Notes: generated by a model from the sequence alone, not told the origin. A stretch of 64,000 nucleotides of DNA from an uncultured Nitrospiraceae bacterium (GCA_963727775.1 CAVSHB010000001.1:224001-288000), one strand, 5' to 3'; shown: positions 9,307-53,933, numbered from the stretch's first letter. Translations and numbers: made by a program.

Positions 9307-9472
9307 CTAACCTGCAGTATTCATATAATTGCCGACAGATACAGTATTTGAGCAGTTTTAAATTCTTTCGAAGAAAGAATTTACCTCGGAGGCCCGATTT
9401 GTAACGGGCCGAGAATGAGCGCAAATACTGTATCTGTCGGCATCCACAAATTCCATGAATTAAGTGGGCTAA
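9307..9472 (+). repeat. Dispersed structured repeat, copy 1 (MITE/REPIN-like or ncRNA)
   Basis: A perfect 21-bp stem (9330-9350 with 9422-9442) encloses two hairpins and the core ACCTCGGAGG...CCGAGAATGAGCG. Near-identical to 42687-42851 and 53763-53933. Confidence 0.9.
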
Positions 9473-9576
9473 GATAGTTCAATCGGCGTTATGCTAAAAT
9501 AGCATTCAAATAGAAAATACTTTTCTCTGATAACTATCAATAACAAACAGGAATCTTTTTTTCGATTTGCAATTGC

Positions 9577-10284
9577 ATGATTGACAATGTGCTTTTAGAG
9601 AATATAAAAAATATATACAGAAAAATTTCGTCCGCTGCTCTTAGATCAGGCAGAGACCCTTTTGATGTGAAACTCGTTACTGTTACAAAGACGGTTGATA
9701 TCGAGAGGATAAAAGCTGCGATAGATTTAGGGTTGAGGACATTCGGGGAAAACAAGGTCCAGGAAGCTCAAAAAAAAATTGCCGAATGTAAATCTAAGTG
9801 CGCGGACTGCGGGATTGAATGGCATATGATAGGCCATCTCCAGAAAAATAAGGCAAAGACCGCGGTACAGCTTTTTGACCTGATCCATTCTCTCGATTCT
9901 GTCGGACTGGCTGAAGAGATCAATAAATATGCGGAGAAGGCGGGGAAAATCACGAGGGGTTTAATAGAGGTCAAACTCTCAGGAGAGGAGAGCAAGCACG
10001 GCATTTCGAGAGAAGATGTCATGCAATTAATAGAAGCTGTATCACGGATGAAGAACCTGAGACTCGAAGGCCTGATGACCATGCCGCCGTTCTTTGAGGA
10101 CCCTGAGATGGCAAGACCTTTTTTCAGGGAGCTGAGAGAAGTAAGGGACAAAGCAGAGAGGTCGGGCTATAAACTGCCGGAGCTTTCTATGGGCATGACA
10201 AATGACTTCGAGGTTGCAATCCTGGAAGGCGCGACAATAGTAAGGATCGGTACGGGGATATTCGGGGAAAGAATCAGGAAATAA
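9577..10284 (+). CDS. yggS: Pyridoxal phosphate homeostasis protein
   Basis: FGENKVQE, WHMIGHLQKNK, LSMGMTNDF and GATIVRIGTGIFG. Confidence 0.95.
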   Translation: MIDNVLLENIKNIYRKISSAALRSGRDPFDVKLVTVTKTVDIERIKAAIDLGLRTFGENKVQEAQKKIAECKSKCADCGIEWHMIGHLQKNKAKTAVQLFDLIHSLDSVGLAEEINKYAEKAGKITRGLIEVKLSGEESKHGISREDVMQLIEAVSRMKNLRLEGLMTMPPFFEDPEMARPFFRELREVRDKAERSGYKLPELSMGMTNDFEVAILEGATIVRIGTGIFGERIRK

Positions 10285-10557
10285 GACAAAAGAATAAGTT
10301 ATTATTTGAGACATATATTATTAAAACCGAAAAATGCAGGTACTGTTCAAAAAATTATTTAACTCGATGAATGTATTGAGAATATCTTTATGCTGGTAAT
10401 CACAAAAATATTTCAGTGGCCAGCCGTTAAATGTACAATAAGGTATCGAAAAACAATTTTTTTCACAACACCAGCATTTTTCTAATTGCAGTTTTTGGGT
10501 TAACCCGGTTACATATATTAAGCTAACAGAAATGTTTTCTTGACTACAGGAGGAGAG

Positions 10558-11346
10558 ATGATAGGTTTTATCGGCGGCGGGAATATGGCGGAGGCTCTGA
10601 TAAAAGGTATACTGCAGAGCGGGGTAAAAGATATAACAGTGTCCGAGCCAAGGGAAGAAAGGCGCATATACCTTGAAAAGGCTTATGGCGTGAAGGCCAC
10701 CCCTGACAATAAGGAAGTTGTAAGAAACAGCAATATTATAATCCTGGCTGTAAAGCCCCAGAATATGGATGAAGTGACTGCCGGTATCGCTGATTCAGTC
10801 ACCGCCGATAAGATAATAGTGTCTATTGCTGCCGGTGTAACATTAGCATATCTTTCATCGCGGCTAAAGACTTCTAAGATAATCCGTGTAATGCCGAACA
10901 CCCCGGCACTCGTTCAGGAGGGCATGTCCGTACTGTCAATGTGTGAATGCATTCAGGACAAAGAAATGAGTTTGGTGCGGGGTATTTTTATGTCCGCCGG
11001 AAAGATTCTCGTACTCCCTGAAAAATATATGGATGCAGTGACCGCTGTTTCGGGGAGCGGGCCTGCTTTCATCGCCTTATTTGTCGAAAAAATGACGGAT
11101 GCGGGTGTTATGGCCGGGCTCAGCAGAGATAATGCCTCTGAGCTTGCAATCCAGACATTGATAGGCACTGCAAAATTGTTGGAGACGGGCATGCCGCCCG
11201 ATAAACTCAGGGAAATGGTCACTTCACCCGGCGGAACGACTGCGGCAGGGCTTAAAGTTTTTGAAGAAAAAGGTCTGAAAAATATAGTTTCTGCCGCGAT
11301 TGAAGCCGCAACAAACAGGTCGAAGGAATTGGGGAGAAAAGAATAA
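10558..11346 (+). CDS. proC: Pyrroline-5-carboxylate reductase
   Basis: IGFIGGGNMA, RVMPNTP, TAVSGSGPA and VTSPGGTT. Confidence 0.96.
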   Translation: MIGFIGGGNMAEALIKGILQSGVKDITVSEPREERRIYLEKAYGVKATPDNKEVVRNSNIIILAVKPQNMDEVTAGIADSVTADKIIVSIAAGVTLAYLSSRLKTSKIIRVMPNTPALVQEGMSVLSMCECIQDKEMSLVRGIFMSAGKILVLPEKYMDAVTAVSGSGPAFIALFVEKMTDAGVMAGLSRDNASELAIQTLIGTAKLLETGMPPDKLREMVTSPGGTTAAGLKVFEEKGLKNIVSAAIEAATNRSKELGRKE

Positions 11347-11658
11347 ATGTTTATCTTCGCGAATTTATTGCTTGCCTCAGCCAGGATTCTCGATGTGTTG
11401 CTTTCTGCTTATATGTGGGTAGTAATAATCTCGGCCTTAATAAGCTGGGTGAATCCCGATCCTTATAACCCGATAGTCAGGTTCCTTTATTCTGTTACTG
11501 AACCGGTATTTAGGCGGATCAGGCGGATTATAGGTTTCCGGCTGGGCGTTATCGACATATCACCCATGGTTGCAATACTCGCGATAATGTTTGTAAAGTA
11601 TTTTTTGATACAGTCATTAATAGAGCTTGCCTATAAATTGAAAGGAGGCATTTTATGA
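11347..11658 (+). CDS. yggT: YggT family membrane protein
   Basis: SWVNPDPYNPIVRFL...TEP and IDISP motifs; canonical context after proC. Confidence 0.92.
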   Translation: MFIFANLLLASARILDVLLSAYMWVVIISALISWVNPDPYNPIVRFLYSVTEPVFRRIRRIIGFRLGVIDISPMVAILAIMFVKYFLIQSLIELAYKLKGGIL

Positions 11659-12134
11659 GAATAACGCCGCTTGATATCCAGCAGAAACAATTCCCCATGA
11701 AGTTCAGGGGGTTCGATGTTGAAGAGGTATACGCATTCCTTGAGATAGTCAGGGAAGAAATGGAAGACCTCCTCAGGGACAACGCGAATCTGAAGGAGAA
11801 TATCCAGAGGCTGGAAACCCAGATTAAAGATTACAAGGACATGGAGACCACTCTGAGAGAAACGCTCCTGACCGCCCAGCAGATGGTCGAGGACTATAAG
11901 ACAAACGCCCGTAAGGAGGCAGAACTCGTTGTGAAGGAGGCGGAACTTAAAGCAGACTCCTTACTTAAAGAAGCTCAGGAGAAGGTCATAAAGATCCATG
12001 AGGACATAGTAGATCTTAAGGGGATCAGACGCCATTTTAAAGAAGAGTTGAGGAGGCTTGTTGAAAGCCATCTGAAGATGCTCGAATTCGATAAGGAGAG
12101 AGAGGAAGAAGAGGGAGGCATGAAGCAGGAATGA
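11655..12134 (+). CDS. divIVA: DivIVA domain protein
   Basis: ITPLDIQQKQF...FRGFDVEEV N-terminus followed by a coiled coil. Confidence 0.9.
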   Translation: MRITPLDIQQKQFPMKFRGFDVEEVYAFLEIVREEMEDLLRDNANLKENIQRLETQIKDYKDMETTLRETLLTAQQMVEDYKTNARKEAELVVKEAELKADSLLKEAQEKVIKIHEDIVDLKGIRRHFKEELRRLVESHLKMLEFDKEREEEEGGMKQE

Positions 12135-13399
12135 AGTATAATGCCCTGAAGGGTGTCCATGACATCTTCCCGCCGGAGATTTACATATGGCAGAAAGTGG
12201 AAAAAGTTGCAAGGGATATATTCTCTGTTTACGGCTTTCAGGAAGTGCGTCCGCCCATCATCGAGTCAACGGATATTTTTATAAGGAGTATAGGCGACAC
12301 TACCGATATTGTCGAAAAAGAAATGTACACATTCTCCGATAAAGCGGAGAGGCATATAACCCTCCGCCCGGAAGGCACGGCGCCTGTTGTAAGGTGCTAT
12401 GTGGAGAACCACCTTTATAACCTGCCGCCGCCGCAGAAATTTTTTTACTCGGGGCCGATGTTCAGATACGAAAGACCGCAGGCAGGACGTTTCAGACAGT
12501 TTTTTCAGATAGGCGCAGAGGCCTTCGGCGCGGCAGACCCGAAGATCGATGCGGAGATACTTTCGATGCTAAAGCTTTTTTTCGAGCGGCTCGGGCTGAA
12601 AGGTCTTAATTTCCAGGTGAATTCCATCGGCTGTGAAAAATGCAGGCCCGATTACAAAAAGGCCCTGCTGAATTTCTTTTCGGACCGCCTCGACGGCTTC
12701 TGTCCTGACTGTAAAAGGAGATATGACCAGAACCCGCTCAGGATACTTGATTGCAAAGTTGAGTCATGCGTGAAGCTTAGAGAAGGTTCTCCGTGCGTCA
12801 CGGATTTCCTGTGCGATGAATGCAGAGAGCACTTCAGTTCATTCCAGTCTTTGCTGAACATTCTGAGCATACCGTTTGTGATTAACCCCAATATGGTCAG
12901 GGGTCTCGATTATTACACGAGGACGACCTTTGAGGTCACTTGTGAAGACCTCGGGGCGCAAAATGCAGTAGCTGCCGGCGGACGTTATGATAAGCTTGTC
13001 GAAGACTTCGGAGGTCCGGCTACCCCTGCGATCGGCTTTGCGATCGGGATGGAAAGAATAACGACTCTGCTTAAGGCATCGACCACCGATACCATACCGT
13101 CTCCACAAGTCTTTATTGCAACGATAGGGTCGTTTGCTGGGAGAGAAAGTCTTGCTATTGCCGATAATCTGAGGAAAAACGGGACATGGGTTGAACTCGG
13201 ATACACGGGGAATTCTTTAAAGAGCCAATTAAGAAGGGCGGACAGACTTTCCGCCCAATATGTCCTGATTGTAGGCGACGATGAGATTGCGTCGGGTAAA
13301 TTGAAATGGAAACGACTTTCAGACAGCAGCCAGGGCGAGATACCGATCACGGAAGTATACGATTTCTTTACCCCACCACATCAAGCTCCCTCACCCTGA
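12131..13399 (+). CDS. hisS: Histidine--tRNA ligase
   Basis: LRPEGTA, FRYERPQAGRFRQF, VRGLDYY and AGGRYD. Confidence 0.97.
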   Translation: MKYNALKGVHDIFPPEIYIWQKVEKVARDIFSVYGFQEVRPPIIESTDIFIRSIGDTTDIVEKEMYTFSDKAERHITLRPEGTAPVVRCYVENHLYNLPPPQKFFYSGPMFRYERPQAGRFRQFFQIGAEAFGAADPKIDAEILSMLKLFFERLGLKGLNFQVNSIGCEKCRPDYKKALLNFFSDRLDGFCPDCKRRYDQNPLRILDCKVESCVKLREGSPCVTDFLCDECREHFSSFQSLLNILSIPFVINPNMVRGLDYYTRTTFEVTCEDLGAQNAVAAGGRYDKLVEDFGGPATPAIGFAIGMERITTLLKASTTDTIPSPQVFIATIGSFAGRESLAIADNLRKNGTWVELGYTGNSLKSQLRRADRLSAQYVLIVGDDEIASGKLKWKRLSDSSQGEIPITEVYDFFTPPHQAPSP

Positions 13400-14792
13400 A
13401 TCCGACGCCCAGTTCTTCGGTTATCTTTCTGCATTTCTCTATATCTACTCCGTCAAGTTTTACAACTGTAACCAGGACGTCGGGTATGTATTTTTTTGAT
13501 TCCTTTATAAAATCTATAATCCCCCGGAATGCATTTTCCAACGCAGGCTTGCAGATTAAGTTATATGTATCCTCATCATGTGCGTTGAGGCTTATGGAGA
13601 TACTGTCGACAATACCTTTGAGATCGGGTAGTATGTTTCTCCGGTGTATCATATTCCCGTGCCCGTTTGTATTTATCCTTACCTTACCGTTGTTCTGCTT
13701 TACCCATGCTGCGACACTTTTAACCAGCCCAAGCCTCAAGAGCGGCTCTCCATAACCACAGAATACGATCTCGGTATATTCTGCCGGGTCTCCTATCGCG
13801 TTCTTCAGGTCTTCTTCCGACGGCTCGTCTGAGTGTCGCAGGTTGTGGCCTTTTACAAAGTCCGACTGGAACCTTATGCAGAATGAGCACGTGTTCGTAC
13901 ATCTGTTGGTAATGTTGAGGTAAAGACTGTCTCTTATACTGTACGTTATTTCGCCTGTACGGGGAATCTGTCCTATCCTGAAAAGCCGCTTTGCATTCAG
14001 TGTCGTAATCCTTGATATGTCTTCAAGTGTGACGCCCCTCAACTCCGCGATCGTCATAGCCGTATGCAAAAGGTAAGAAGGTTCGTTCCTTCTGCCCCTG
14101 AAAGGTTCAGGGGTGAGATAAGGCGCGTCTGTTTCGATAAGCAGATAATCATCAGGTATTGCCCTTGCAATATCTTGCAGATTTTTTGCCTTCTTAAAAG
14201 TGACGGGGCCCGCAATCGATATATACAAACCCATAGCCATCGCCTTTTCGGCCATATCTATGTCGCCGGAAAAACAATGCATGACGCCGCTATTTATTCC
14301 TGATTTATTGATAATATCGAGAGTATCTTCCTTTGCCTCCCTGCTATGGATGAGCACCGGAAGGTTGATCTCACCGGCAAACTGAAGCTGCTTCATAAAT
14401 ACTTCCCGCTGTATTTCACGGGGCGAATGATCATAATGGTAATCAAGGCCGATCTCCCCGATAGCTACGATTTTCGGTTTTAGTTCGGAGTTCGAAGTTC
14501 GGATTCCCGGACTCGTTCTTTTAATTCTATATTCACCGGCCCATGTTTTTATCTGATCAAATATTTCTTCCGTGAAATCCTTGGCATCATGCGGATGGAA
14601 GCCGACCGCTGAATAGATGAAATCGTATTTTCGGGAAAGCTCAAGGCCGCCGATATTGCCTTTCAGGTCGGTGCCTATCGAAATTATTGCCTCGATACCC
14701 GATTCCCTGGCCCTTTTGATAACATCCGCCCTGTCGGGATCAAATGCATCCATCTCAAGATGGCAATGAGTGTCAATCAACTTTGGGATCAT
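13368..14792 (-). CDS. tatD: TatD family hydrolase fused to TatD-associated radical SAM domain
   Basis: IDTHCH, GEIGLDY, IHSR, HCFSG and ETDAP motifs, then YLNITNRCTNTCSFC and VFCGYGEP. Confidence 0.9.
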   Translation of the reverse strand: MIPKLIDTHCHLEMDAFDPDRADVIKRARESGIEAIISIGTDLKGNIGGLELSRKYDFIYSAVGFHPHDAKDFTEEIFDQIKTWAGEYRIKRTSPGIRTSNSELKPKIVAIGEIGLDYHYDHSPREIQREVFMKQLQFAGEINLPVLIHSREAKEDTLDIINKSGINSGVMHCFSGDIDMAEKAMAMGLYISIAGPVTFKKAKNLQDIARAIPDDYLLIETDAPYLTPEPFRGRRNEPSYLLHTAMTIAELRGVTLEDISRITTLNAKRLFRIGQIPRTGEITYSIRDSLYLNITNRCTNTCSFCIRFQSDFVKGHNLRHSDEPSEEDLKNAIGDPAEYTEIVFCGYGEPLLRLGLVKSVAAWVKQNNGKVRINTNGHGNMIHRRNILPDLKGIVDSISISLNAHDEDTYNLICKPALENAFRGIIDFIKESKKYIPDVLVTVVKLDGVDIEKCRKITEELGVGFRVRELDVVG

Positions 14793-14887
14793 AGGTTATT
14801 TCCATAGCTGTATCTAATATTTTTCAAACTTGATGGATTCAATGAAAAATTATAACTTATCTGTCAATTTTCTGTGCTCTTCCTGAA

Positions 14888-15091
14888 TCATTGCATCTCG
14901 CCATTTTGCCCCATGCGGTATTTGATGCCGTAATTAATAATGGAATCAAGTTCCTCGTCTGTGAAGCCGTAATGCTTTGCGAGTACACAGTCGATTTCTG
15001 ATGAAATACAGGCGGGATTAAGCACTCTATCCTCATTGGTAGGCTGCATCATATGCACAGCGAATTCAATAATCTCACGAGGCGTGATTTC
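14888..15091 (-). pseudogene. Collapsed N6-adenine methyltransferase / restriction-modification remnant
   Basis: One frame reads TPREIIEFAVHMMQPTNEDRVLNPAC (motif X and motif I-like), joined to EIDCVLAKHYGFTDEELDSIINYGIKYRMG (C-terminal tail typical of Eco57I-like RM proteins). Confidence 0.65.
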
Positions 15092-15454
15092 TCATCTCCG
15101 CCCGGGCCTGCGTTTTGCCTGGTACGGTGGAGAGGATTCGGCAATACGCATTTCCGTCTCTGTATCAATCGGCTCGAAGACTACGCGGACATGGGCGTGC
15201 AGAGCTTCGGCTACGCGGCGGAGCATACTGAGGGAATGGCCTTCATAGCCGGGAGACTCAAGCCGGCTGATTTGTTGCTGGGAAGTCTTCAGAAGCTTCG
15301 CCAGTTCCTTTTGAGAAAGCCCGGCCTTCTGCCGGAGAACGGCGATTTGCAGCGCCACATCCCAGGCCTCTCCGGCGCGCTCAAAGCGTGAGGCAAAGGA
15401 AGGGTCTTTTCGCTGCTCTTCGAGGTAACGGTCAAAATTAGTTTTTTTCTTCAT
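15092..15454 (-). CDS. Xre/HigA-type HTH antitoxin
   Basis: LRQKAGLSQKELAKLLKTSQQQISRLE HTH; ATGA overlap with the upstream toxin. Confidence 0.88.
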   Translation of the reverse strand: MKKKTNFDRYLEEQRKDPSFASRFERAGEAWDVALQIAVLRQKAGLSQKELAKLLKTSQQQISRLESPGYEGHSLSMLRRVAEALHAHVRVVFEPIDTETEMRIAESSPPYQAKRRPGRR

Positions 15455-15807
15455 TCCGCTCTTTTCTTCCAATCGCTCATTCGTTTCCGCGCAACCGCAA
15501 TATCACGGGCAGGGATATCCTGTCCCTTATGGCGTATGCCGTGTACCGCAACGATCCGGCGATCCTTCATAAAAAACCACAAGACGCGGGTGTTGAGCTT
15601 GCCCACATGGCGTAGCTCGAACAGCCCGTTGTCGAGCGCTTTGGCCAATGGTTCGCGGTGATATTGCTTGTTCCGCAGCTTTGCCAGTCCTGCGACAACC
15701 GCTGCAAAATCATCCGGATCACTGACCTTCAACTCGTCAAGAAATTTACGAAGAGGGCACGCCCCCGAAGCCGTTTCATAAAATTCTATTGTAAAATCCA
15801 TGCTCAT
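15451..15807 (-). CDS. RelE/ParE-superfamily (Gp49/HigB-like) toxin
   Basis: IEFYETASGACPLRKFLDEL...GLFELR...RVLWFF...IVAVHG; toxin-first pair with the HTH gene. Confidence 0.85.
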   Translation of the reverse strand: MSMDFTIEFYETASGACPLRKFLDELKVSDPDDFAAVVAGLAKLRNKQYHREPLAKALDNGLFELRHVGKLNTRVLWFFMKDRRIVAVHGIRHKGQDIPARDIAVARKRMSDWKKRAE

Positions 15808-15892
15808 GTCAACATCAATATTGTTGTACCACCCGCATATCCTCCTCAGTAATCCGCCGCTTGCCGGTGACACATTCGTGGATAGAGGATTT

Positions 15893-15998
15893 GATATTGC
15901 TGCAATGCTGTGATTTGATTTTCTATATTTTTGTTAAGTTTCTTAAGTTCTGCTGTTTTGGCGTCAAGATAATCTGTAAGATTATTCTGCTCTATATT
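15893..15998 (-). pseudogene. Type I RM specificity subunit (HsdS-like) fragment
   Basis: EQNNLTDYLDAKTAELKKLNKNIENQITALQQY resembles the conserved HsdS coiled coil; the flanking sequence is unrelated. Confidence 0.5.
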
Positions 15999-16131
15999 AT
16001 CGAAGATACGCGGTATAGATGCTACAATTCTATCACAGGCAGGGCAATTTTGATAAGGTCTATTCAATGTTATAAAGATACCTGCAAGTAATATAAAATG
16101 AGTTGCAGGCTTAATGAATGTTATAAGAACT

Positions 16132-17340
16132 TTATGCGCCGAATTTCTTGAGGCGCCCTGCATTGGCAAGGGCCAGGGGCATGAGATTTACTGTAGGGAA
16201 AATACCGAGTTCGCCTTTCAGGCACTCCCTTTCGGAAAACGCTTTGCATGTATCACCGAGAACATATGGGGATTTCAGGAGAACAGGCACAGGATGCCAG
16301 CTGTGGCTTTTCATAACGGAGGGAGTTGAATGGTCTCCGGTTATCATGATGACATCGGGATTGAGACTGAGTATTTCCGGGAGGAATGTATCGAATTCCT
16401 CAATCTTTGATACCTTGCCCTGGAAGTTTCCATCCTCACCGTAAGAGTCAATCTTCTTGACATGCATGAAGAAAAAGTCATAGTCATTATAATTCTTTTT
16501 CAGAAAATCGAGCTCTTCTCTTATATCACCTTTTAACGGTGGGGCATCCATACCGATCAATTTGGCAAGACCGCGGTACATGGGATATACCGCTATGCAC
16601 AACGGTTTCAGCCCATAGACGTCATTGAAATGCGGGATATCAGGTACCTGAGAAAAGCCTCTGAGAAGGATAAAGTTGGCCTTTGGTTCATTCTTTATAA
16701 TATCTGTAATACCTGAAATCAGTTTCTCAACAACCTTTGCAACTCTTCCTGCCTCCGGTGTTTCCGGGGTAACCGGAACAGGTGTCTTTCCTTCCTTCTG
16801 GGGATCTGTATCTTTTATGCAGGCTGATCCCTTCGGTAATGGTTCGGGAAATCTAAGCACTGCAGCAAACCGGTGTTCCATGCCCGGGGCGAAGATCACT
16901 TCTGCATCATCAATCTTCTGAATATTCTCCTGAAGCCTCTCGGTTATCTTTCTGTTCTCATCGGTCGGGATTCTTCCTGCTCTTCTGTCCTGGATTATAC
17001 CATCCTTAATCGTGGCATAATTAATACGTATGGCAATGTCCGTCTTGCGTAATTCGATTCCGAGGCCGAGCGCCTCAAGCACTCCTCTGCCTATCTGCCA
17101 TTCAACCGGATCGTAACCGAAAAGCGATAAATGTCCCGGTCCGCTTCCCGGGGTTATCCCTGTTGCAACGGGGATGTGCAGCCCGCACGCGGACCTTGCC
17201 GCTAAAGCATCGAGATTCGGTTTGAGCGCTGTATCGAGCTCTGTCTTTCCGTTTAAGGGCAGGCCTCCGAGGCCGTCAAGAACAACAAGAAATATTTTTG
17301 TATTGTTTTTCTGTATGAGGTCTTTGATGAGTGTCTGCAT
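16132..17340 (-). CDS. apgM: 2,3-bisphosphoglycerate-independent phosphoglycerate mutase (archaeal/ApgM type)
   Basis: VLDGLGG, TPGSGPGHLSLFGYDP, DRRAGRI, TGDHSTP and HSWHPVP. Confidence 0.92.
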   Translation of the reverse strand: MQTLIKDLIQKNNTKIFLVVLDGLGGLPLNGKTELDTALKPNLDALAARSACGLHIPVATGITPGSGPGHLSLFGYDPVEWQIGRGVLEALGLGIELRKTDIAIRINYATIKDGIIQDRRAGRIPTDENRKITERLQENIQKIDDAEVIFAPGMEHRFAAVLRFPEPLPKGSACIKDTDPQKEGKTPVPVTPETPEAGRVAKVVEKLISGITDIIKNEPKANFILLRGFSQVPDIPHFNDVYGLKPLCIAVYPMYRGLAKLIGMDAPPLKGDIREELDFLKKNYNDYDFFFMHVKKIDSYGEDGNFQGKVSKIEEFDTFLPEILSLNPDVIMITGDHSTPSVMKSHSWHPVPVLLKSPYVLGDTCKAFSERECLKGELGIFPTVNLMPLALANAGRLKKFGA

Positions 17341-17354
17341 GGGGAAAAAAATTA

Positions 17355-24966: not shown

Positions 24967-25042
24967 GGGCGGTTAGCTCAGCTGGGAGAGCACCACGTTC
25001 GCAACGTGGGGGTCGAGGGTTCGAATCCCTTACCGTCCACCA
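24967..25042 (+). tRNA. tRNA-Ala (anticodon CGC)
   Basis: 76-nt cloverleaf with G3.U70 pair, anticodon arm CCACG-TTCGCAA-CGTGG, TTCGAAT T-loop and encoded CCA. Confidence 0.97.
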
Positions 25043-42686: not shown

Positions 42687-42851
42687 CTAACCCACACTAT
42701 TCATAAGATTGCTGACAGATGCAGTATTTAAGCGGTTTTAAATTCTTTTAAAGAAAGAATTTACCTCGGAGGCCCGATTCGTACCGGGTCGAGAATGAGC
42801 GCAAATACTGTATTTGTCGGTACCACAAATTTTATAAATTGAGTGGGTTAA
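42687..42851 (+). repeat. Dispersed structured repeat, copy 2
   Basis: Same element as 9307-9472. The four substitutions in the long stem all give G.U pairs. Ends are TAACCCAC / GTGGGTTA. Confidence 0.9.
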
Positions 42852-42878
42852 ACAATGATTATTCATACTGCATGGAAT

Positions 42879-42991
42879 ATCAGAGCAGATGCTGTATCAT
42901 CGCTCATTCTCGGTCCCGAAAGCTTTCGGGACCTCCGAGGTATCCCGATCAAATCGGGATAAAGCCGCTCTGATACAGCATCTGCTCTGAT
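42879..42991 (-). repeat. Dispersed structured repeat, divergent covariant copy 3
   Basis: Same core (AGCGGCTTT, ACCTCGGAGG and CCGAGAATGAGCG on the minus strand), but all three stems have different, still perfectly paired sequence. Confidence 0.85.
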
Positions 42992-45321: not shown

Positions 45322-46428
45322 ATGATTATAGGTGTTCCGAAAGAAATTAAGAAAAGCGAGTTCAGGGTTGGGATGACGCCTTACGGCGTTGAGGAACTTA
45401 AGGCCGGCGGTCACATAATCCTTATTGAGACAGGCGCTGGAGCGGGCAGTGATTTTTCGGATGATGAATATCTGCAGGCAGGCGCTGAGATCGTCGGCAG
45501 AGACACTTTATTTAATAGAGCCGACCTCATCGTGAAAGTAAAGGAACCTGTTTCGTCCGAATACAATCTTTTCAGGGAAAGGCAGGCGATATTTACCTTT
45601 CTTCATCTTGCTGCAAACCGGGAGCTTATTGATCTGTTCCTCACTAAAAAGATTGCCGGCCTTGGCTATGAGACATTGCAGAAGGATGGGTCCCTGCCGC
45701 TCCTCTCACCCATGAGCGAGATCGCGGGAAGGATGGCGCCTATCATGGGGGCTTACTTTCTCCAGAAGGTCCATGGCGGCAGGGGGATTTTGCCCACAGG
45801 GGTAATGGGCGTTGAACCCGCAAAGGCGCTGGTCCTCGGCGCCGGTATCGTCGGCACTAACGCAGCCCGTGATTGTGTCGGCCTCGGGATGGACACCGTT
45901 GTCATGGATATAAGAATGGAGAGATTGCAGAAGATAGACGAGATGTTCATGGGAAGGGTAAAGACACTGCCGGTCACCGTACACAATATAAAGGAAGAGA
46001 TAAAGGATGCGGATATTATAATCGGCGCTGTCCTCATCCCGGGCGGGAAAACACCGGTTTTGATTAAACGGGACATGCTCAAGACCATGAAAAAAGGCTC
46101 TGTTATTATCGACGTGTCGGTGGACCAGGGAGGATGTTTCGAGACATCTAAGCCGACCACGCACGATGCGCCGATCTATGAAGTCGAAGGGATAATTCAT
46201 TACACCGTCGCAAATATGCCCGGTGCGTATCCGAAGACCTCAACCATAGCCCTGACGAATGTGACCCTTCCCTATATTAAGATACTGGCCGATAATGGCA
46301 TTGAAAAAGCGATAAGGGAAGACGCCGCAATAAAAAGTGCCCTTAATACTTACAAAGGTTTTATTGTCCACAGGATGCTCGCGGATTCCATGGGGTATAC
46401 TTTTAAGAATATTGATGAACTGTTTTAG
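45322..46428 (+). CDS. ald: Alanine dehydrogenase
   Basis: IGVPKEIK, VKVKEP, FTFLHLAA, PMSEIAGR, DQGGCFETS and VANMPGA. Confidence 0.95.
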   Translation: MIIGVPKEIKKSEFRVGMTPYGVEELKAGGHIILIETGAGAGSDFSDDEYLQAGAEIVGRDTLFNRADLIVKVKEPVSSEYNLFRERQAIFTFLHLAANRELIDLFLTKKIAGLGYETLQKDGSLPLLSPMSEIAGRMAPIMGAYFLQKVHGGRGILPTGVMGVEPAKALVLGAGIVGTNAARDCVGLGMDTVVMDIRMERLQKIDEMFMGRVKTLPVTVHNIKEEIKDADIIIGAVLIPGGKTPVLIKRDMLKTMKKGSVIIDVSVDQGGCFETSKPTTHDAPIYEVEGIIHYTVANMPGAYPKTSTIALTNVTLPYIKILADNGIEKAIREDAAIKSALNTYKGFIVHRMLADSMGYTFKNIDELF

Positions 46429-46530
46429 CCGGCGAACCGATGAATATTCTCAAAGGCCGGTGGCCGGTCCCTGCCTATTCAGTGACACTGATAGAATTGT
46501 CAAGCCAAAGTAAATCTTTCCACAAAGAAT

Positions 46531-46568
46531 TTCATCAAAAATTAACATTCTATTCATAATCCTGTAAC
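46531..46568 (+). promoter_or_regulatory. Pho-box-like array (4 half-sites, 11-nt period)
   Basis: TTCAT, TTAAC, TTCAT and GTAAC start at 46531, 46542, 46553 and 46564. Confidence 0.6.
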
Positions 46569-46615
46569 GGGAATAAAGTTTAATTATAAAAAAAGATTTT
46601 TATAAGGAACCAGTT

Positions 46616-46783
46616 ATGAAATGCCCGCACCTTATTAAATGGTTGACCTGCAAAGCTCAGGATAAGATATATTCCCCGAGTTCTTTCCAGCTCCAGGAAT
46701 ACTGCAAGAGGAAAGGCCATAAAAAATGTCCTTTTTACTCAAAGGGGGTGCAGATATGTAACGAAACTTTAACGGAATTGTAA
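46616..46783 (+). CDS. Small Cys-rich hypothetical protein (55 aa) ahead of pstS
   Basis: MKCPHLIKWLTCKAQDKIYSPSSFQLQEYCKRKGHKKCPFY...; AAGGA SD upstream. Confidence 0.6.
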   Translation: MKCPHLIKWLTCKAQDKIYSPSSFQLQEYCKRKGHKKCPFYSKGVQICNETLTEL

Positions 46784-46795
46784 CATGCTTGTAAT
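46757..46795 (+). promoter_or_regulatory. Pho box (PhoB/PhoP-type) upstream of pstS
   Basis: TGTAAC, TTTAAC, TGTAAC and TGTAAT at 46757, 46768, 46779 and 46790. Confidence 0.8.
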
Positions 46796-46834
46796 AATTA
46801 AAATATATTATAAACTATTTAAAAGGGAGGAACT

Positions 46835-47842
46835 GTGAAAACAATAATGAAACTGGCACTGGCAATGGTCTTGCTTCTGTCATTCACAAACGTTGAGGCC
46901 GCTGAAACCCTGAACGGCGCAGGAGCGACGTTCCCATATCCCGTCTACTCCGCTTGGGCGTATGACTATAACAAAATCACAGGGGTAAAGCTCAATTATC
47001 AGTCCATCGGTTCAGGGGGAGGCATTAGACAGATCACCGAAAGGACAGTTGACTTTGGTGCTTCTGACGCACCGCTTAAAACTGAGCAGCTCCAGAAAGA
47101 CAAATTGCTGCAGTTTCCCGCCGTCATCGGAGGGGTTGTCCCGGTCGTGAATATTTCAGGAGTAAAAGCAGGGGAGCTGAAACTTGATTCCGAGGCCTTA
47201 TGCAAAATATACCTTGGAGATATCAAAAACTGGGATGACAAAAAGATCAAGACACTTAATCCGAAGATGAGTCTGCCTCACAGCGAAATTACCGTTGTCC
47301 ACAGGTCGGATGGATCGGGGACAACCGCAATATTCACGGAATACCTCAGTGGCATATGCCCTGACTGGAAGGCGAAGGTAGGTTCCGGCACCTCTGTAAA
47401 GTGGCCTGTAGGCATCGGCGGCAAAGGCAATGAAGGAGTAGCAAATTATACTCAAAGGACAGCGTCCTCTATCGGCTATGTCGAATTTGCCTATGCAAAA
47501 CAGAACAAACTGTCTCATGTATCACTGAAGAACCATGCGGGGAATTTTATTGAGCCGAGCTTTGAAAGCTTTGAGGACGCGGCTGAGACCGGTGATTTCA
47601 ATCCAAAGAAAGATTTCTACCTGTGGCTTACTGACGCGCCGGGTAAAGGTTCATGGCCGATAGCAGGAGCAACCTTCATACTCCTCGCAAAAGAAAAGAC
47701 CGGTTCAAATAAAAATGTCATCACATTTTTTGACTGGGCCTTTAAAAACGGAGACAATAAGGCTAAAGAGCTTGTTTATGTCCCCCTGCCGAAATCCTTA
47801 AAGGAAAAGATCAGGACTTACTGGAAGACAAACGGTCTATAA
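46835..47842 (+). CDS. pstS: Phosphate ABC transporter substrate-binding protein
   Basis: GAGATFP, YQSIGSGGG, DFGASD, RSDGSGTT and GKGNEGV. Confidence 0.96.
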   Translation: MKTIMKLALAMVLLLSFTNVEAAETLNGAGATFPYPVYSAWAYDYNKITGVKLNYQSIGSGGGIRQITERTVDFGASDAPLKTEQLQKDKLLQFPAVIGGVVPVVNISGVKAGELKLDSEALCKIYLGDIKNWDDKKIKTLNPKMSLPHSEITVVHRSDGSGTTAIFTEYLSGICPDWKAKVGSGTSVKWPVGIGGKGNEGVANYTQRTASSIGYVEFAYAKQNKLSHVSLKNHAGNFIEPSFESFEDAAETGDFNPKKDFYLWLTDAPGKGSWPIAGATFILLAKEKTGSNKNVITFFDWAFKNGDNKAKELVYVPLPKSLKEKIRTYWKTNGL

Positions 47843-47856
47843 AACGAACTCACATA

Positions 47857-47902
47857 ACTCCCCCCCGCCCCCTCTTAGCTTAAGAGGGGGTTTGGGGGCG
47901 TT
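47857..47902. repeat. C/G-rich REP-like hairpin between pstS and pstC
   Basis: CCCCCTCTTA-GCT-TAAGAGGGGG perfect stem with an outer C-run/G-run stem. Confidence 0.65.
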
Positions 47903-47970
47903 ACCTGAATTTCAATGTCACTATACTTATGAACTCCTTACTAATAACAATGGACAAGGGATAATGCAAA

Positions 47971-48912
47971 ATGGCTACAACAACCAGGAAGAACTCCTTT
48001 GATCTGATCTTTTCGTCTATTACAGCCGTTTCTTCATTCCTGGTTATTTTCTTTATAATCGGAATTGTTTATGTGCTCATTTCAGAATCTTTGCCGGCAA
48101 TAAACAAATTCGGAGTCATAAAATTTCTTGCTTCAACAGACTGGGACCCGGTAAAAGAATCTTTTGGCGCGTGGACCAATATTTACGGTACCATAATTAC
48201 AACGTTTCTCTCGCTGGTCATGGCAATACCTGTTGCTATCGGCATTGCGATCTTTGTTACTGAGATCTCCCCCAATTTCCTGAAAGGACCCATCGGGATG
48301 GCCATCGAACTTCTGGCTGCCATACCGAGCATCATTTACGGCATGTGGGGACTTTTCACTTTGTCCCCTATTATGAGCAACTATGTAGAGCCGTTTCTGA
48401 AAAAGGTCACCGCCGGCATACCTTTGATCGAGACCCTTTTCCGGGGTACGCCCATGGGAATTGATATCCTGACCGCAAGCATAATACTAAGCATCATGAT
48501 AATTCCATTTACCGCAAGCATATCAAGGGACTCTTTTAATCTCACGCCCTCGGTGGTAAAGGAATCCGCCTATGCCCTTGGAGCAACAAAGTGGGAGGTC
48601 GTCAAGGATGTGGTAATGCCCTATTCGAAGCTGGGCGTTTTTGGAGGGATAGTCCTCTCCCTCGGCAGGGCCCTCGGCGAGACTATGGCAGTTGCTTTTG
48701 TGCTCGGTAACAACCACAGGATAACCACATCCCTCCTCGATGCCGCCGCAACTATTACCGTAACGTTGGCAAATGAATTCACGGAAGCGGACAAGGACAT
48801 TTACTTATCTTCGCTTTTTTATCTCGCTCTCGTGCTCTTTGTGATGAGTTTCATTATCCTTGCCATAGCGAAATTTTTCCTTCTGAAAGCTGAGAGGAAG
48901 TATTCACGATGA
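47971..48912 (+). CDS. pstC: Phosphate ABC transporter permease
   Basis: ELLAAIPSIIYGMWG and GRALGETMAV; operon position. Confidence 0.95.
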   Translation: MATTTRKNSFDLIFSSITAVSSFLVIFFIIGIVYVLISESLPAINKFGVIKFLASTDWDPVKESFGAWTNIYGTIITTFLSLVMAIPVAIGIAIFVTEISPNFLKGPIGMAIELLAAIPSIIYGMWGLFTLSPIMSNYVEPFLKKVTAGIPLIETLFRGTPMGIDILTASIILSIMIIPFTASISRDSFNLTPSVVKESAYALGATKWEVVKDVVMPYSKLGVFGGIVLSLGRALGETMAVAFVLGNNHRITTSLLDAAATITVTLANEFTEADKDIYLSSLFYLALVLFVMSFIILAIAKFFLLKAERKYSR

Positions 48913-49748
48913 CCATAGAGCAAAGGAGAAAAACCGAGGCGAGTATCGCCCTAACGCTCAGCACGTTGGCCGCGTTCCTGGGTCTTTTCTGGCTCGTATT
49001 CATCCTCGGTGATGTGCTTGTGCATGGCATAAAGGCGCTGAATCTCAGTCTGTTCATAAATGACCCGACTCCCCCGGGGGTAGAGGGAGGGGGGCTCAGA
49101 AACGCCTTTACAGGGCAGCTGATTATAACGTTATGCGCCACCTTAATCGGGGTTCCTGTCGGCGTGCTCGGAGGCACGTTTCTTGCCGAATATGCACGGG
49201 GCAGAAAAATTGCGAGGACTATAAGCATACTCTCCGATATCATGGTAAGCGTTCCTTCGATTGTTATAGGTACTTTTATCTATGCGATACTCGTAAAGCC
49301 TGTCGGCCACTTTAACGGCTGGGCCGGGTCTGTTGCACTCGCGATAATCATGATTCCCGTGGTCCTCAGGACAACGGAAGATATGCTTTCTCTGGTTCCC
49401 TGGACATTGAGGGAGGCTGCATTTGCCCTCGGCGCACCATATTATAAGGTTATAATACAGGTGGTTTACCGCGGGGCGGCAACGGGTATTCTGACAGGTA
49501 TTCTCCTCTCTATCGCGAGAGTGGCCGGAGAGACGGCGCCGCTGCTGTTTACCGCTTTTAATAACTCTTTTTTCACGCTGGACATGAAACAACCCGTTGC
49601 GTCCTTGACCGTGACCATATTTCAGTATGCCATGGGCCCTTACGAAAACTGGCACGCCCAGGCATGGGCAGCGGCATTTGTTATTACGATATTCATACTT
49701 ATTGTTACAATACTCGGAAGGCTCATTATAAAGTGGAGGTACAGATAG
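48909..49748 (+). CDS. pstA: Phosphate ABC transporter permease
   Basis: [17 protein letters not shown] and [10 protein letters not shown]. Confidence 0.95.
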
Positions 49749-50512
49749 TGCCCGGAACAGTTGAGATAGAAGTAAAAGACCTGGACTTTTATTATTCGGG
49801 GGAAATCCCCGCCCTTAAGAAAATAAATCTTTCAGTATACAAAAATGCCGTTACCGCACTAATAGGTCCTTCAGGCTGCGGGAAGACGACTTTGCTCCGG
49901 TGTTTCAACCGGCTGCATGACCTTTATCCGAAGAACAGGTACGAAGGCCAGATACTTTTTCAGGACGAGAACATCCTCTCAAATGGGACGGATCTCATCA
50001 ACCTGAGGAGCCGCATAGGAATGGTCTTTCAAAAGCCGACACCATTCCCCATGAGCATATTCGACAATATTGCATATGGGCTTAAACTGAAAGGGATTAA
50101 AAAAAGAGCTGACCTTTCGGAGAAGGTCGAAAAAGCCCTCAGGCACGCGGCCCTATGGGACGAGGTGAAGGACAAACTCAATAACAGCGCCTATGACCTT
50201 TCCGGAGGACAACAGCAGAGACTTGTTATTGCAAGGGCTTTGGCCGTAAACCCCGAAGTGCTGCTCTTTGATGAGCCGACATCCGCACTTGATCCGATAT
50301 CCGCTGCAAAGATAGAAGAACTTACGGAAACGCTTAAAAAAGAGATTACGATTATAATAGTAACGCACAATATGCAGCAGGCTGCGCGCATATCGAATTT
50401 TACGGCTTTGATGTATTTGGGAGAGTTGATTGAGTTCGGGGACACGGATACAATATTTGTAAATCCGCAGAATAAACTTACGGAAGAATATATCACAGGG
50501 AGATTCGGCTAA
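49748..50512 (+). CDS. pstB: Phosphate ABC transporter ATPase
   Basis: [29 protein letters not shown] and YITGRFG; GTG start at 49748. Confidence 0.96.
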
Positions 50513-51177
50513 TGGCTATTTTTGACGAAGAATTAAAAGAGCTGAGAGAAAAAGTACTGAAGCTCGGCTATATGGTAGAAAGCGCTATCCGTGATTCGGT
50601 AAAGTCATTGATGGACAGGGACAGCGAGCTCGCAAAAGAAGTCATCACGAGAGACCATCTGATAAACGCCCTCGACGTTGGGATTGATGAAGAATGTGTG
50701 AGGCTCATCGCACTCAGACAGCCCATGGCGAGAGACCTGAGGTTTATAACCACTACCATGAAGATAACCACGGACCTCGAAAGGATGGGAGACCTTGCCG
50801 TCAATATTGCGGAGCGGGCGATAGAGCTGAATCAGGAACCGCTGTTAAAGCCCTTCGTGAACATACCGAAGATGGCTGAGATCTCCCAGTCAATGGTAAG
50901 GGACGCCCTTGACGCATTTGTCACAGGCTGTTCCCGCCTGCCCTATGAAGTTATAAAGAGGGATGACGAAGTGGATGAGCTTACCGTACGGAACTTTGAA
51001 GAACTCATGTCTTTCATGGTACGGGACCCGAAGATTATCCCGCTCGCGGTTAAAAGGACTTACATCGCAAAATATCTCGAAAGGATCGCGGACCATGCAA
51101 CCAATATCTCCGAGATGATCATTTATATGTGCAAGGGCAAAATAATCAGGCATACTGAGATCAAGGACCAGGAGTAG
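50512..51177 (+). CDS. phoU: Phosphate signalling protein PhoU
   Basis: QPMARDLR, DLERMGD and LERIADHATNI. Confidence 0.95.
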   Translation: MAIFDEELKELREKVLKLGYMVESAIRDSVKSLMDRDSELAKEVITRDHLINALDVGIDEECVRLIALRQPMARDLRFITTTMKITTDLERMGDLAVNIAERAIELNQEPLLKPFVNIPKMAEISQSMVRDALDAFVTGCSRLPYEVIKRDDEVDELTVRNFEELMSFMVRDPKIIPLAVKRTYIAKYLERIADHATNISEMIIYMCKGKIIRHTEIKDQE

Positions 51178-51249
51178 GTAATTTTACGATCTGTACGGGC
51201 ACAATCAAAAAATATAATCCCCTTTCGTGTGTGTTATCATAATATTTAA

Positions 51250-52017
51250 ATGCATCCTATACTAATAAGAATAGGTTCGCTGACAATACATACATATGGC
51301 TTTCTTGTGGCCTCGGGGTTTCTGGTCGGCATCTGGCTCGCGGTGCGGCAGGCCAAAAAAGAGGGTATCCCGCCGGACAAGATAATTGATCTCGGGTTCT
51401 ATATACTCCTTGCAGCCATTATCGGATCAAGGCTCCTGTTTATTCTTATTAATTACACCCACTATCTTAGATTCCCTTTGGATATTATTAAGATATGGGA
51501 AGGCGGGCTTGTTTTTTACGGCGGCGTGCTGCTTGCCTTACCCACCGCAGTCTGGTTCGTAATGAAGAACAGGCTTGGCGTCTGGAATACCGCGGATGTT
51601 TTTGCCCCTTCAATCGCGATCGGCCACTCTTTCGGACGGCTTGGGTGCTTTGCCGCCGGGTGCTGCTTCGGCAAGGCATCTGAAGCGCTTCCCTGGGGGA
51701 TTATCTTTACCGACCCTGAATGTCTTGCCCCGACACATATACTTTTGCATCCGACTCAGTTGTATGAATCAGCAGGCGAATTTATGAATTTTCTAATACT
51801 CTTGACCTTAAGAAGCTACAAGTCATTTGACGGCCAGTTAATGATGACATATCTTCTGCTCTATTCAATTCTTAGATTCGTCGTCGAAATTTTCAGAGGG
51901 GATGTGGCAAGAGGCTTTATTTTCTCGACAATCTCGGTATCTCAGGGGATCAGTATTCTCATGTTTCTGGCTGCGATTGTGGGTTTTGTTATTTTAAAGA
52001 AAAAGAAAAAACAATAA
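51250..52017 (+). CDS. lgt: Prolipoprotein diacylglyceryl transferase
   Basis: IWEGGLVFYGG, GRLGCF, HPTQLYE and RFVVEIFR. Confidence 0.95.
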   Translation: MHPILIRIGSLTIHTYGFLVASGFLVGIWLAVRQAKKEGIPPDKIIDLGFYILLAAIIGSRLLFILINYTHYLRFPLDIIKIWEGGLVFYGGVLLALPTAVWFVMKNRLGVWNTADVFAPSIAIGHSFGRLGCFAAGCCFGKASEALPWGIIFTDPECLAPTHILLHPTQLYESAGEFMNFLILLTLRSYKSFDGQLMMTYLLLYSILRFVVEIFRGDVARGFIFSTISVSQGISILMFLAAIVGFVILKKKKKQ

Positions 52018-53037
52018 TCACAACGGCAAGTATGCTATTGGATTCAGGTCAAGTCCCGCGAAGTCTACTGCTTTAAAGTGGTGATATCCTGCTGCCCCGA
52101 TCATCGCCGCATTGTCAGTGCACAGGGATATGGATGGCATAAATATTTCCGTTGCCAGCTCCTCGCCCATCTTTATCAACCTCGCCCGCAATTCACTGTT
52201 TGCCGCAACGCCGCCTGACAGAGTGACCCTTTTAACCCCTTCATTTCCTATGGCCCATTCAGTTTTCCTCACAAGGACATCGACGATAGATGCCTGGAAG
52301 GAAGCGGAGATATCTCTGATTAGTCCCGATTCCAGAGGCCTGATTTCGGTCTGCCGGTTCCCGGAACCCGATCTCAAATAATTTAGCACCGCTGTTTTCA
52401 CCCCGCTGAAGCTGAAGTCGAGTGATTCAGGCAGATAGGCCCTCGGAAAGTCGATAGCCTTTGGGTCGCCGTCGTGCGCAAGTTTATCAATTAACGGACC
52501 GCCCGGATATCCGAGGCCGAGGAGTTTTGAAATTTTATCATAAGCCTCGCCTGCGGCATCGTCCCTTGTCCTGCCCAGTTCCACATATTTGCCGAAGGCA
52601 TCGATCCTGTAAAGGGACGTATGCCCCCCTGACACAATAAGCGCAATAAAAGGGAAGGACGGTCTCGGGTCTTCAAGAAACGAAGAGAATATGTGTCCTT
52701 CGAGGTGGTTCACCGCAATGAGCGGAATTCCTTTTGAATAGCACACAGCCTTCGCAAAAGAACAGCCGACGAGCAGCGAACCTATCAGCCCGGGACCGTG
52801 GCAAACGGCGATCCCTGATAAATCTTCGAAGGGAACTCCCGCGGTTGTCAACGCTTCATCAACAACGGGCCAGATCATCTCGATATGCCTGCGAGATGCA
52901 AGCTCCGGAACAATCCCACCGTATTTTTCATGTATCTCCGTCTGACTCGAAATAATATTGGAGATTATATTTGTGCCGTCTTCAACAACCGAGGCTGAAG
53001 TATCGTCGCAGGATGTATCTATTCCAAGGATAAGCAT
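52018..53037 (-). CDS. tsaD: tRNA N6-adenosine threonylcarbamoyltransferase
   Basis: GIDTSCDD, HLEGH, VSGGHT, DDAAGEAYDK and CTDNAAMI. Confidence 0.96.
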   Translation of the reverse strand: MLILGIDTSCDDTSASVVEDGTNIISNIISSQTEIHEKYGGIVPELASRRHIEMIWPVVDEALTTAGVPFEDLSGIAVCHGPGLIGSLLVGCSFAKAVCYSKGIPLIAVNHLEGHIFSSFLEDPRPSFPFIALIVSGGHTSLYRIDAFGKYVELGRTRDDAAGEAYDKISKLLGLGYPGGPLIDKLAHDGDPKAIDFPRAYLPESLDFSFSGVKTAVLNYLRSGSGNRQTEIRPLESGLIRDISASFQASIVDVLVRKTEWAIGNEGVKRVTLSGGVAANSELRARLIKMGEELATEIFMPSISLCTDNAAMIGAAGYHHFKAVDFAGLDLNPIAYLPL

Positions 53038-53047
53038 TTCAGAGACA

Positions 53048-53695
53048 CTAAGGTTTGTAATTATACTTATTTACGCCTTTCGGCAGAGAGGGTTCGAACA
53101 ATTTGTCTTCCAGTCCCGTATTGATTTTAATGTCCTTTAAAGTCATCTCTATCCTGTTCGAATAAGAATCGTTTACAGTGAATGATTTTATCGGAAACTC
53201 GCCTTCGAAAAGTTCAATCTCTATGGAGAGGATCCCTCCCATCGGCTTTTTGGGTTTAAGGAGCAGCTTCCCGTTTTTGTCGGAGACTGCGAACTCTTCC
53301 TGTATCTTCCCAAACCCGCTTAAGAGGGCGATCGGCGCCTGGCCGTAAGTGTTCCTGTCAAATTTCCCGCTGAAGACCTGTTTTTCTTTTTTCTGAAAGA
53401 TAACGATTTCGTCATTATTAATAAACACATCCTGGGCATGCTCCCCTTTATACTCCCACTTCATCTTCATCGGCATTTTTATAAAAAACTTGCCGTTAAA
53501 TGTGTCGGTACGTTTCAGGTCCTTTACGTAGCTTTTCTGAACGAAGTTTCCTTTTATGTCCTTGATGTTTTCATAAGCCTTCTGTATCTTCGCAATTTCC
53601 TCATCCGCCGACGCAGCAGCCCCAATGACGGGAAACAGTAAACAACAAGCGGCAAGTAGCGAAATAATTACAAACCTGTTTTTAAGATATTTCAT
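53048..53695 (-). CDS. lolA: Outer-membrane lipoprotein carrier protein LolA family
   Basis: Signal peptide, GNFVQK...KMKWEY, and C-terminal INTGLEDKLFEPSLPKGV. Confidence 0.82.
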   Translation of the reverse strand: MKYLKNRFVIISLLAACCLLFPVIGAAASADEEIAKIQKAYENIKDIKGNFVQKSYVKDLKRTDTFNGKFFIKMPMKMKWEYKGEHAQDVFINNDEIVIFQKKEKQVFSGKFDRNTYGQAPIALLSGFGKIQEEFAVSDKNGKLLLKPKKPMGGILSIEIELFEGEFPIKSFTVNDSYSNRIEMTLKDIKINTGLEDKLFEPSLPKGVNKYNYKP

Positions 53696-53762
53696 TTGCT
53701 CCTCTATTATGTTTTATTTTATATTTTAAACGAACCCGCCCGCAGAAAGCCAAGGTTGACCC

Positions 53763-53933
53763 TGAGCCCACTTAATTCATAAAATTTGCCGGTGCCGACA
53801 GATACAGTATTTGCGCTCATTCTCGGCCCGATACCAATTGGGCCTCCGAGGTAAATTCTTTCTTCGAAAGAATTTAAAACCGCTTAAATACTGTATCTGT
53901 CGGCAATCTTATGATATGAATAGCGTAGGTTAG
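53763..53933 (-). repeat. Dispersed structured repeat, copy 4
   Basis: Reverse complement of the 9307-9472 element, with the same long stem and core. Confidence 0.9.

Follow-up and report, generated by a model that had tools for sequence, protein, structure and literature searches.

A gene-less, IS1380-ended repeat of a Nitrospiraceae genome with a three-way-junction core found in seven phyla

Several kinds of short bacterial repeat have been described that come close to the element reported here, a structured repeat present in four copies within 64,000 nucleotides of DNA from an uncultured Nitrospiraceae bacterium (GCA_963727775.1, CAVSHB010000001.1:224001-288000; this whole stretch is referred to as the window). 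The targets of CsrA in RNA are hairpin loops with GGA, which it binds as pairs (PMC4333381), and TwoAYGGAY (RF01731) is a family of two hairpins on a long basal stem (PMC2864571, PMC4333381, bioRxiv 10.64898/2026.09.22.753630). ERIC/IRU, Correia/NEMIS and YPAL/RU-2 are intergenic miniature inverted-repeat transposable elements (MITEs) of 100-200 bp whose transcripts fold end to end; two reviews ascribe to ERIC an orientation-dependent effect on mRNA, with RNase E, and to Correia a stem that is cleaved by RNase III (PMC2229807, PMC10969869). The REP/REPIN-RAYT and CGTC-REP/NTS-Ssn systems comprise short palindromic extragenic repeats of 20-40 bp, found near gene ends and as inverted doublets (PMC3733652, PMC11893778).

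The element of the window inserts with a target duplication, ends like an insertion sequence (IS) of the IS1380 family and folds with a bias for one strand; its core recurs across phyla, its arms are exchanged between copies, and its GGA loops are associated with the gene csrA. It is read here, with a probability of about one half, as a gene-less IS1380-type MITE carrying an older, cross-phylum structured module, likely an RNA, whose loops likely bound CsrA ancestrally and whose junction is likely needed for spread. The structured repeat is real, widespread and, it appears, uncatalogued; it belongs with MITEs of the folded-RNA kind and stands out by its cross-phylum core and exchangeable shells. 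No published description was found in the literature searched, whose coverage mostly excluded subscription papers, and motif supplements (Weinberg, the TwoAYGGAY preprint) could bear on novelty.

With TwoAYGGAY the element shares its two hairpins and long basal stem, GGA loops in lineages with csrA, wide variation in copy number, a mobile-like spread and an excess of inverted doublets that are mostly divergent (6/8 here, 68.4% for TwoAYGGAY in bioRxiv 10.64898/2026.09.22.753630). It differs in that the junction, not the loops, is conserved, and is kept without GGA, and in that a carrier (the IS1380 ends) and empty sites are at hand. RF01731 matched none of 20 loci or five genomes (positive control, 3/3), and the element's model scored only 19-20 bits on TwoAYGGAY loci, the same as reverse-strand shadows; the element is TwoAYGGAY-like in layout and not a member. 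Matching ends, a 4-base YTAR duplication, the lack of an open reading frame (ORF) and empty sites are those of miniature derivatives of the IS1380 family, from which the element departs in an interior that is not IS1380 sequence and in a module that also occurs outside the shell and within unrelated ends. ERIC, Correia and YPAL each occur in a narrow taxon only, and TA termini are found in ERIC and Correia; the element differs in both respects. The element's model reached at best 6.4 bits on five loci identified by an ERIC primer, and no ERIC was present in the E. coli pdhR-aceE interval. YPAL/RU-2, with a duplication that varies from 3 to 26 bp against 4 bp here, is set apart by description. 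Finally, one copy that lies in frame in a gene for a conserved protein (map, described below) recalls the Rickettsia palindromic elements, from which the present repeat differs in sequence and hosts, in offering a single such case and in being nearly always intergenic.

The features of the window are as follows (positions counted from its first letter).

9307..9310, + strand: left target duplication CTAA of copy 1, from the empty-site contigs
9311..9468, + strand: copy 1 MITE, 158 bp, with IS1380-type ends (11/16 and 13/16 letters identical to the autonomous IS end)
9330..9442, + strand: structured module of copy 1 (P1 9330-9349/9423-9442; P2b 9359-9383; P3b 9392-9409)
Junction segments of copy 1, + strand: GCRG 9352-9355; CCTCGGAG 9384-9391; CGAGAATGAGC 9410-9420
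9469..9472, + strand: right target duplication CTAA of copy 1
42687..42851, + strand: copy 2 (MITE 42691-42847, 157 bp, ends 14/16 and 13/16 letters as in the IS; flanks CTAA/TTAA; module 42710-42822)
42860..42874, - strand: remains of a decayed terminal repeat 3' of copy 3, from by-eye comparison with subfamily-b copies
42879..42991, - strand: copy 3, module of subfamily b (P1 42991-42971/42899-42879; P2b 42961-42941; P3b 42932-42913)
Junction segments of copy 3, - strand: GCGG 42968-42965; CCTCGGAG 42940-42933; CGAGAATGAGC 42912-42902
53763..53933, - strand: copy 4 (MITE 53929-53767, 163 bp, ends 11/16 and 15/16 letters as in the IS; flanks CTAA/CTCA; module 53905-53793)

Re-inspection of the window found the four copies at the loci and on the strands first assigned to them, the outer bounds given for copies 1, 2 and 4 having taken in the 4-base target duplication. 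The terminal repeats of these three copies, initially called MITE-like, are the ends of a 1.65-kb IS, of which the source genome has four full copies and one partial copy; its transposase matches NF033539 (IS1380, NCBIfam) with 409.9 bits at a cut-off of 180, and 11-15 of 16 letters agree with the IS end. The core is absent inside the four full IS copies. Contigs of a related strain (one sample, three runs) join position 9306 to 9469; since 162 bases are skipped and 4 letters fit both sides, copy 1 is a 158-bp MITE insertion with a duplication of CTAA. A second filled/empty pair, L354 against G000:C4:352812, shows the same pattern with one mismatch (G000 is the source genome; the other G- and L-numbers are genomes and loci compared). 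These empty sites bear out the mobility that the initial annotation had proposed, including the target duplication it had suggested looking for. For copies 2 and 4 no empty site was seen, and the flanks of each differ by one base. YTAR forms the left flank in 20 of the 22 copies that keep both ends, and in 11 of the 22 the two flanks are identical; the 69 parsed copies of the source genome comprise 21 with both IS1380-type ends, 22 with one and 26 with none. Being multicopy, 157-163 bp long and devoid of coding capacity, copies 1, 2 and 4 are classed, by sequence, as IS1380-derived MITEs.

Three further observations concern the shell. At G000:C4:4090-4160 (L023:1091-1160) both IS1380-type ends and the P1 halves are found without a core, which was apparently deleted between short direct repeats. 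IS200-type (Y1 transposase) elements abut the right end of two MITE copies (G000:C1:672113-672640 and C3:133614-134140), and the same junction sequence at both suggests a target preference. A second multicopy DDE transposase (~473 aa, weak match to PF13701) occurs at no fewer than 17 places in the source genome and is commoner there than the IS1380 studied.

Within each window copy a long stem closes a three-way junction on the core strand (z -7.1 to -11.0; 0/200 shuffles as stable). The module, of ~110 nt, runs in the order P1, a two-base internal loop, GC/GC, GG, a 3-nt bulge, P2b, CCTCGGAG, P3b, CGAGAATGAGC and P1'. P2b and P3b are variable and the junction, with a core of 23 nt, is invariant; its unpaired residues are kept while the surrounding stems vary. 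Anatomy was counted on 195 parsed copies out of 218 records, the remaining 23 having no scorable P1 (five at locus ends, 18 under a score of 14; the chance matches L098 and L147 are among them). P1 has a median length of 21 bp (10th-90th percentile, 18-25; 227 copies). In correction of the earlier architecture, the junction also permits a GG/CC pair and a 3-nt bulge ahead of P2; in its best register 961 of 1,170 cells are Watson-Crick, against 363-623 in shifted registers.

The strand-specific fold first proposed from these copies is supported: P1 positions 3-16 on the core strand hold 219 G.T cells against 50 A.C, and the four P1 positions at which copy 2 departs from copy 1 all give G.U pairs on the strand then named. 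So is the covariation of the stems, for in a 20-sequence MAFFT alignment 27 of 35 pairs changed on both sides, a value reached by 0/500 shuffles (relatedness uncorrected), and 96% of cells pair, against 37-45% in slid structures. The core strand folds better in 167/193 copies under RNA rules and in 173/193 under DNA rules. The fixed three-armed core likely folds as RNA. The k-junction was considered as a template and set aside: its report describes a 3-nt loop, tandem G.A/A.G, an A at 1n and a third helix on the non-bulged strand (PMC10573300), and by-eye assignment found the loop, G1b, A2b and third helix to fit and 1n to be G, not A, in 191/195 copies.

The core is older than the IS1380 shell, because it also occurs without IS1380 ends and inside unrelated ends. 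In G090 the module lies within different ends, with TGA on both sides (two pairs read), and other lineages have further outer repeats of their own (by eye). Arms are likewise exchanged. Stems mix freely among the copies of the source genome, five of which have the core flipped within the shell, and P3b has been swapped wholesale at two of six orthologous pairs (six of eight could be parsed) with flanks 91-93% identical. Copy 3 belongs to a second subfamily (b) with seven copies in the source genome; its P1 differs, as first noted, and is nevertheless not an unrelated replacement, the middle of the stem being common with the first subfamily. No autonomous version with an ORF inside a loop was found in the source genome or the loci.

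Element sites vary between strains. Downstream of pdxA the module is present, in both orientations, in 6/30 genomes of the family, the remainder running mostly straight into the next gene or into other repeats; at this 3' hotspot (L150-L178) CGTC-type palindromes, a MITE that ends differently, arrays of short tandem repeats and a mini repeat lacking the core are also present among relatives. In a Saccharibacteria metagenome-assembled genome (MAG) of the Patescibacteria an intact sense-strand copy (L055:306-1226, - strand) lies in frame in the only map gene found, adding ~30-46 residues to a variable loop of the type I methionine aminopeptidase; the outer 12 bp of its P1 may be host codons. Another sense copy stands between rpoB and rpoC (genes named by eye). 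The notion that P1 is built from the neighbouring gene was rejected, a gene stop falling within a P1 arm in only 14/227 copies; L055 and L094 are suggestive single cases of such copying.

The exact core pattern occurs in 36/61 relatives (reversed-pattern control, 0) and in 91/201 genomes of the order (reversed control, 2), and copy number within one family ranges from 0 to 65. In the source genome, of 3.4 Mb, a covariance model found 73 copies at 61-118 bits (150/807 candidates scored) and no fifth copy in the window. A GTDB scan gave at least 125 loci, with an estimate of ~2,000 stretches. Well-formed members carry the titles Nitrospirota, Desulfobacterota, Planctomycetota, Latescibacterota, Patescibacteria, Gemmatimonadota and Pseudomonadota; four non-Nitrospirota genomes hold 116, 44, 40 and 37 exact matches, a model built on Nitrospirota scores 12/12 tested members of other lineages at 42-82 bits, and P1 is present in 106/116 metagenome matches. 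Two copies of Nitrospirota type (L051, L108; short or end-of-contig), on short contigs whose titles name Elusimicrobiales and Nitrososphaerales, are probably binning contamination and were left out of the phylum count. In phages the strict pattern had no match and a looser one had 49, which are put down to chance since none has a P1 stem. A blastn search with copy 1 found no match in plasmids or E. coli genomes, and one with a G090 copy gave only short chance matches. As the initial annotation had supposed, the core has no known Rfam family: no relevant match was obtained in the window, the doublet of copies 2 and 3, or 20 diverse loci, and the single match in the window is a tRNA gene at 24967-25039 (+).

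All four copies are intergenic and have housekeeping neighbours (radical SAM protein/YggS-like, ksgA/pdxA and lolA/lipoate ligase; names taken from Pfam families). Copies 2 and 3 form a convergent doublet with pdxA on one side and ksgA on the other, at which no excess of sigma-70 promoters or terminators was seen.

Changes within the core have a distribution of their own. Among 37 BLAST-collected copies of the source genome, the 23 core sites show 11 private changes and none shared, against 20 private and 17 shared in P1 and P2b (p=0.004); the G>A change at 9352-9355 of copy 1 (GCRG) is private to that copy. Pooled over three genomes the counts are 13 and 0 for the core against 53 and 49 for P1 and P2b (p=0.0005); the top-30 BLAST sets of G027 (core, 2 private, 0 shared) and G090 (0, 0) are not significant alone. 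Core changes in the source genome that are private and never shared imply that copies decay after insertion and that core mutants leave no descendants. The junction is likely needed for copies to spread; the private-only pattern could also result from gene conversion with the core as its anchor.

The loops vary with the host. In the order, 91 genomes bear the element; P3 has a GGAYG loop in 33/34 of those with csrA and in 6/57 of those without, or, by copies, in 232/314 and 33/755; both arms have it in 13/27 copies examined from csrA-bearing families. Outside this sample, csrA is present in 5/6 genomes with sense GGA loops and 0/3 without. The source genome has neither csrA nor GGA loops: its family has csrA in 0/21 genomes, and no sense A(N)GGA loop occurs in its 69 copies. 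Ancestrally, both hairpin loops are likely to have been CsrA sites. In G086 (Planctomycetota; csrA not found), L033, L063 and L222, the P3 loops of some subtypes show the GGA motif reverse-complemented, as though turned round. Orientation is also biased: where the neighbouring genes point the same way, antisense placements of the G.U strand outnumber sense ones 30:4 in the source genome and 28:6 in other Nitrospirota, and the bias follows the core, not the shell, being also 12:0 in unshelled copies and 3:0 in flipped ones. A replication-strand bias could not be read, GC skew being too weak.

Taken together, the following course may be proposed. Shelled copies would be moved in trans by the IS1380 transposase, and their G.U strand would be transcribed by read-through. 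RNase III prefers about two helical turns, and the two-turn P1 stem might be cut by it, by analogy with Correia, or merely close the head. In hosts with csrA the loops would be bound by CsrA. Some factor would read the junction during copying or copy-to-copy conversion, making core mutants dead ends. In the csrA-less family of the source genome the loops would have decayed, each copy now drifting, and in the Nitrospirota sense insertions inside operons would be purged because that RNA disturbs the message.

A partner gene was sought beside the copies. Among 603, 188 and 103 neighbouring ORFs, compared by clustering and inspection with no Pfam scan and no search for GIY-YIG, no recurring transposase, nuclease or small ORF was found. 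Y1_Tnp, present in 49/61 relatives, is uninformative. Reverse transcriptase occurs in 22/61 relatives, six times in the element-free G020, and was not found in the high-copy genomes G027, G035, G019, G016, G024 and G031. Neither reverse transcriptase nor Y1 transposase nor IS1380 follows copy number, and no candidate factor emerged. In the source genome, reverse transcriptase genes lie in two halves, two of them split by ~3.5 kb (G000:C1:37393-41528, 318274-318971, 477885-482029), which suggests interrupted group II introns.

Several results weigh against the reading of an IS1380-type MITE with an RNA module. IS1380 is present in 21/61 relatives without tracking copy number and was not found in the high-copy G027, G035 and G019 (MAGs often lack IS contigs); 105/126 copies outside the source genome have no IS1380-type ends. 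RNA and DNA rules favour the same strand, so that the G.T bias marks the strand and does not prove RNA. Stem changes on both sides, inverted loops and flipped cores can all be produced in palindromes by template switching, with no selection involved. Most of the private/shared result comes from the source genome (11 of 13 core changes), and the G090 core, with no private changes against 6.3 expected, suggests per-copy selection rather than drift. The csrA link lies largely between families (f1, f2, f12 against f5, f7, f9), within-family contrasts being confined to f3 (1 vs 1) and f6 (1 vs 3); 30 of the 33 GGA copies in csrA-less genomes come from three MAGs of f5, f7 and f9, in whose other element-bearing genomes csrA is present. 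G088 has GGA loops and no csrA match, and many GGA loops are without the A that stands upstream in the best CsrA sites. Outside the Nitrospirota there is no antisense bias. That CsrA makes the sense orientation tolerable was suggested by ratios of 18:14 against 13:47 and is contradicted by the GGA-bearing Nitrospirota, where the bias persists (4 sense, 12 antisense).

Of the other readings, one that is rather unlikely makes the junction the active part of an undescribed kind of selfish RNA module. Its core, which would be protein-free and either a catalyst itself or recognised by a housekeeping enzyme, would bring about its own copying in many phyla, borrow the ends of whichever IS is available, swap arms as cassettes and be tuned to the CsrA of its host where there is one. 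Unlikely, too, is a host-domesticated, dispersed CsrA sponge or other regulatory RNA, its mobility an incidental capture by MITE ends and the copies of the source genome relics after the loss of csrA. The tracking of csrA by GGA loops, the twin loops in 13/27 copies and the core of the csrA-bearing G090, free of private changes, speak for it, and an equal proposal has been published for TwoAYGGAY (PMC4333381; bioRxiv 10.64898/2026.09.22.753630); but the order's largest expansions, 755 copies with intact core in 57 genomes, fall in csrA-less families, copy number runs from 0 to 65 in one family, and sites vary between strains. Compared with a CsrA sponge of the CsrB/RsmY type, relatives pair GGA hairpin loops with csrA, confounded with family as noted above, and the source genome has neither.

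It is quite improbable that the T-shaped fold is read as DNA, as a single-stranded substrate for an HUH transposase or an Ssn-like nuclease acting in trans, in the manner of REPINs or NTS. DNA rules do favour the same strand, many loops are 3 nt or perfect palindromes (cGAAg in 25 P2 loops), the core is flipped inside P1 in five copies, eight inverted doublets (6 divergent, 2 convergent) occur against 1.2-2.5 expected, and, by eye, the 3' core read on its reverse strand bears a loose likeness to CGTC-type tags. Yet a ~110-nt three-way junction is not a 20-40 bp hairpin; the neighbouring ORFs held no recurring transposase or nuclease; only one of 20 Y1_Tnp loci fetched, from more than 200 matches, has the element, and no flanked RAYT gene was among them; no GTRG or CGTC tag was found, GTRG being absent from the four modules, and the degenerate SRM consensus of NTS/SRM-Ssn matched 0/195 copies; such a substrate would have no reason to track csrA; and the one clean empty site has a DDE-type duplication, between IS1380 ends. 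The link to HUH transposases and REPINs that the initial annotation had entertained, with a linked RAYT or TnpA gene to be looked for, therefore finds no backing. Separately, several Nitrospirota copies (L031, L038, L060) have a REP-like palindrome of a C-run and a G-run nested in the P2 loop.

A new self-cleaving ribozyme with the invariant junction as catalytic core is very improbable. It would explain invariant unpaired residues amid variable stems and the avoidance of the sense orientation inside Nitrospirota operons; against it, a closed 21-bp stem would keep the products together, intact sense copies stand in frame in a single-copy map gene and between rpoB and rpoC, there is no orientation bias outside the Nitrospirota, no Rfam ribozyme matched, and the four modules contain no CUGANGA, hairpin or pistol core words. 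The RAYT, Ssn and ribozyme readings gained no support. Least credible of all is passive MITE cargo, in which template switching perfects the stems, gene conversion homogenises the core and the fold has no function: the wholesale P3b swaps at 2/6 pairs, the shelled core-less copy at G000:C4:4090 and a core that decays at the stem rate in the source genome fit it, and a single 23-nt core shared by seven phyla whose stems are lineage-specific and whose shells differ, the one-strand G.T excess, the constant P1 length and the csrA tracking do not.

MITEs are commonly regarded as remnants of a single transposon, peculiar to one lineage. In the present case a 23-nt junction is kept over seven phyla against a background of changing stems, loops and shells, and this implies an activity or a partner. 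To the question raised by TwoAYGGAY, of CsrA-type RNAs that behave as mobile DNA, the element adds a second family, with a named candidate transposase and empty sites. Sister families with and without csrA provide a natural experiment, and the core-less copy at G000:C4:4090-4160 could serve as a ready-made control in work on mobility. Constructs of ~110 nt make it possible to test directly for binding of CsrA, cutting by RNase III, self-cleavage and mobility that depends on the core.

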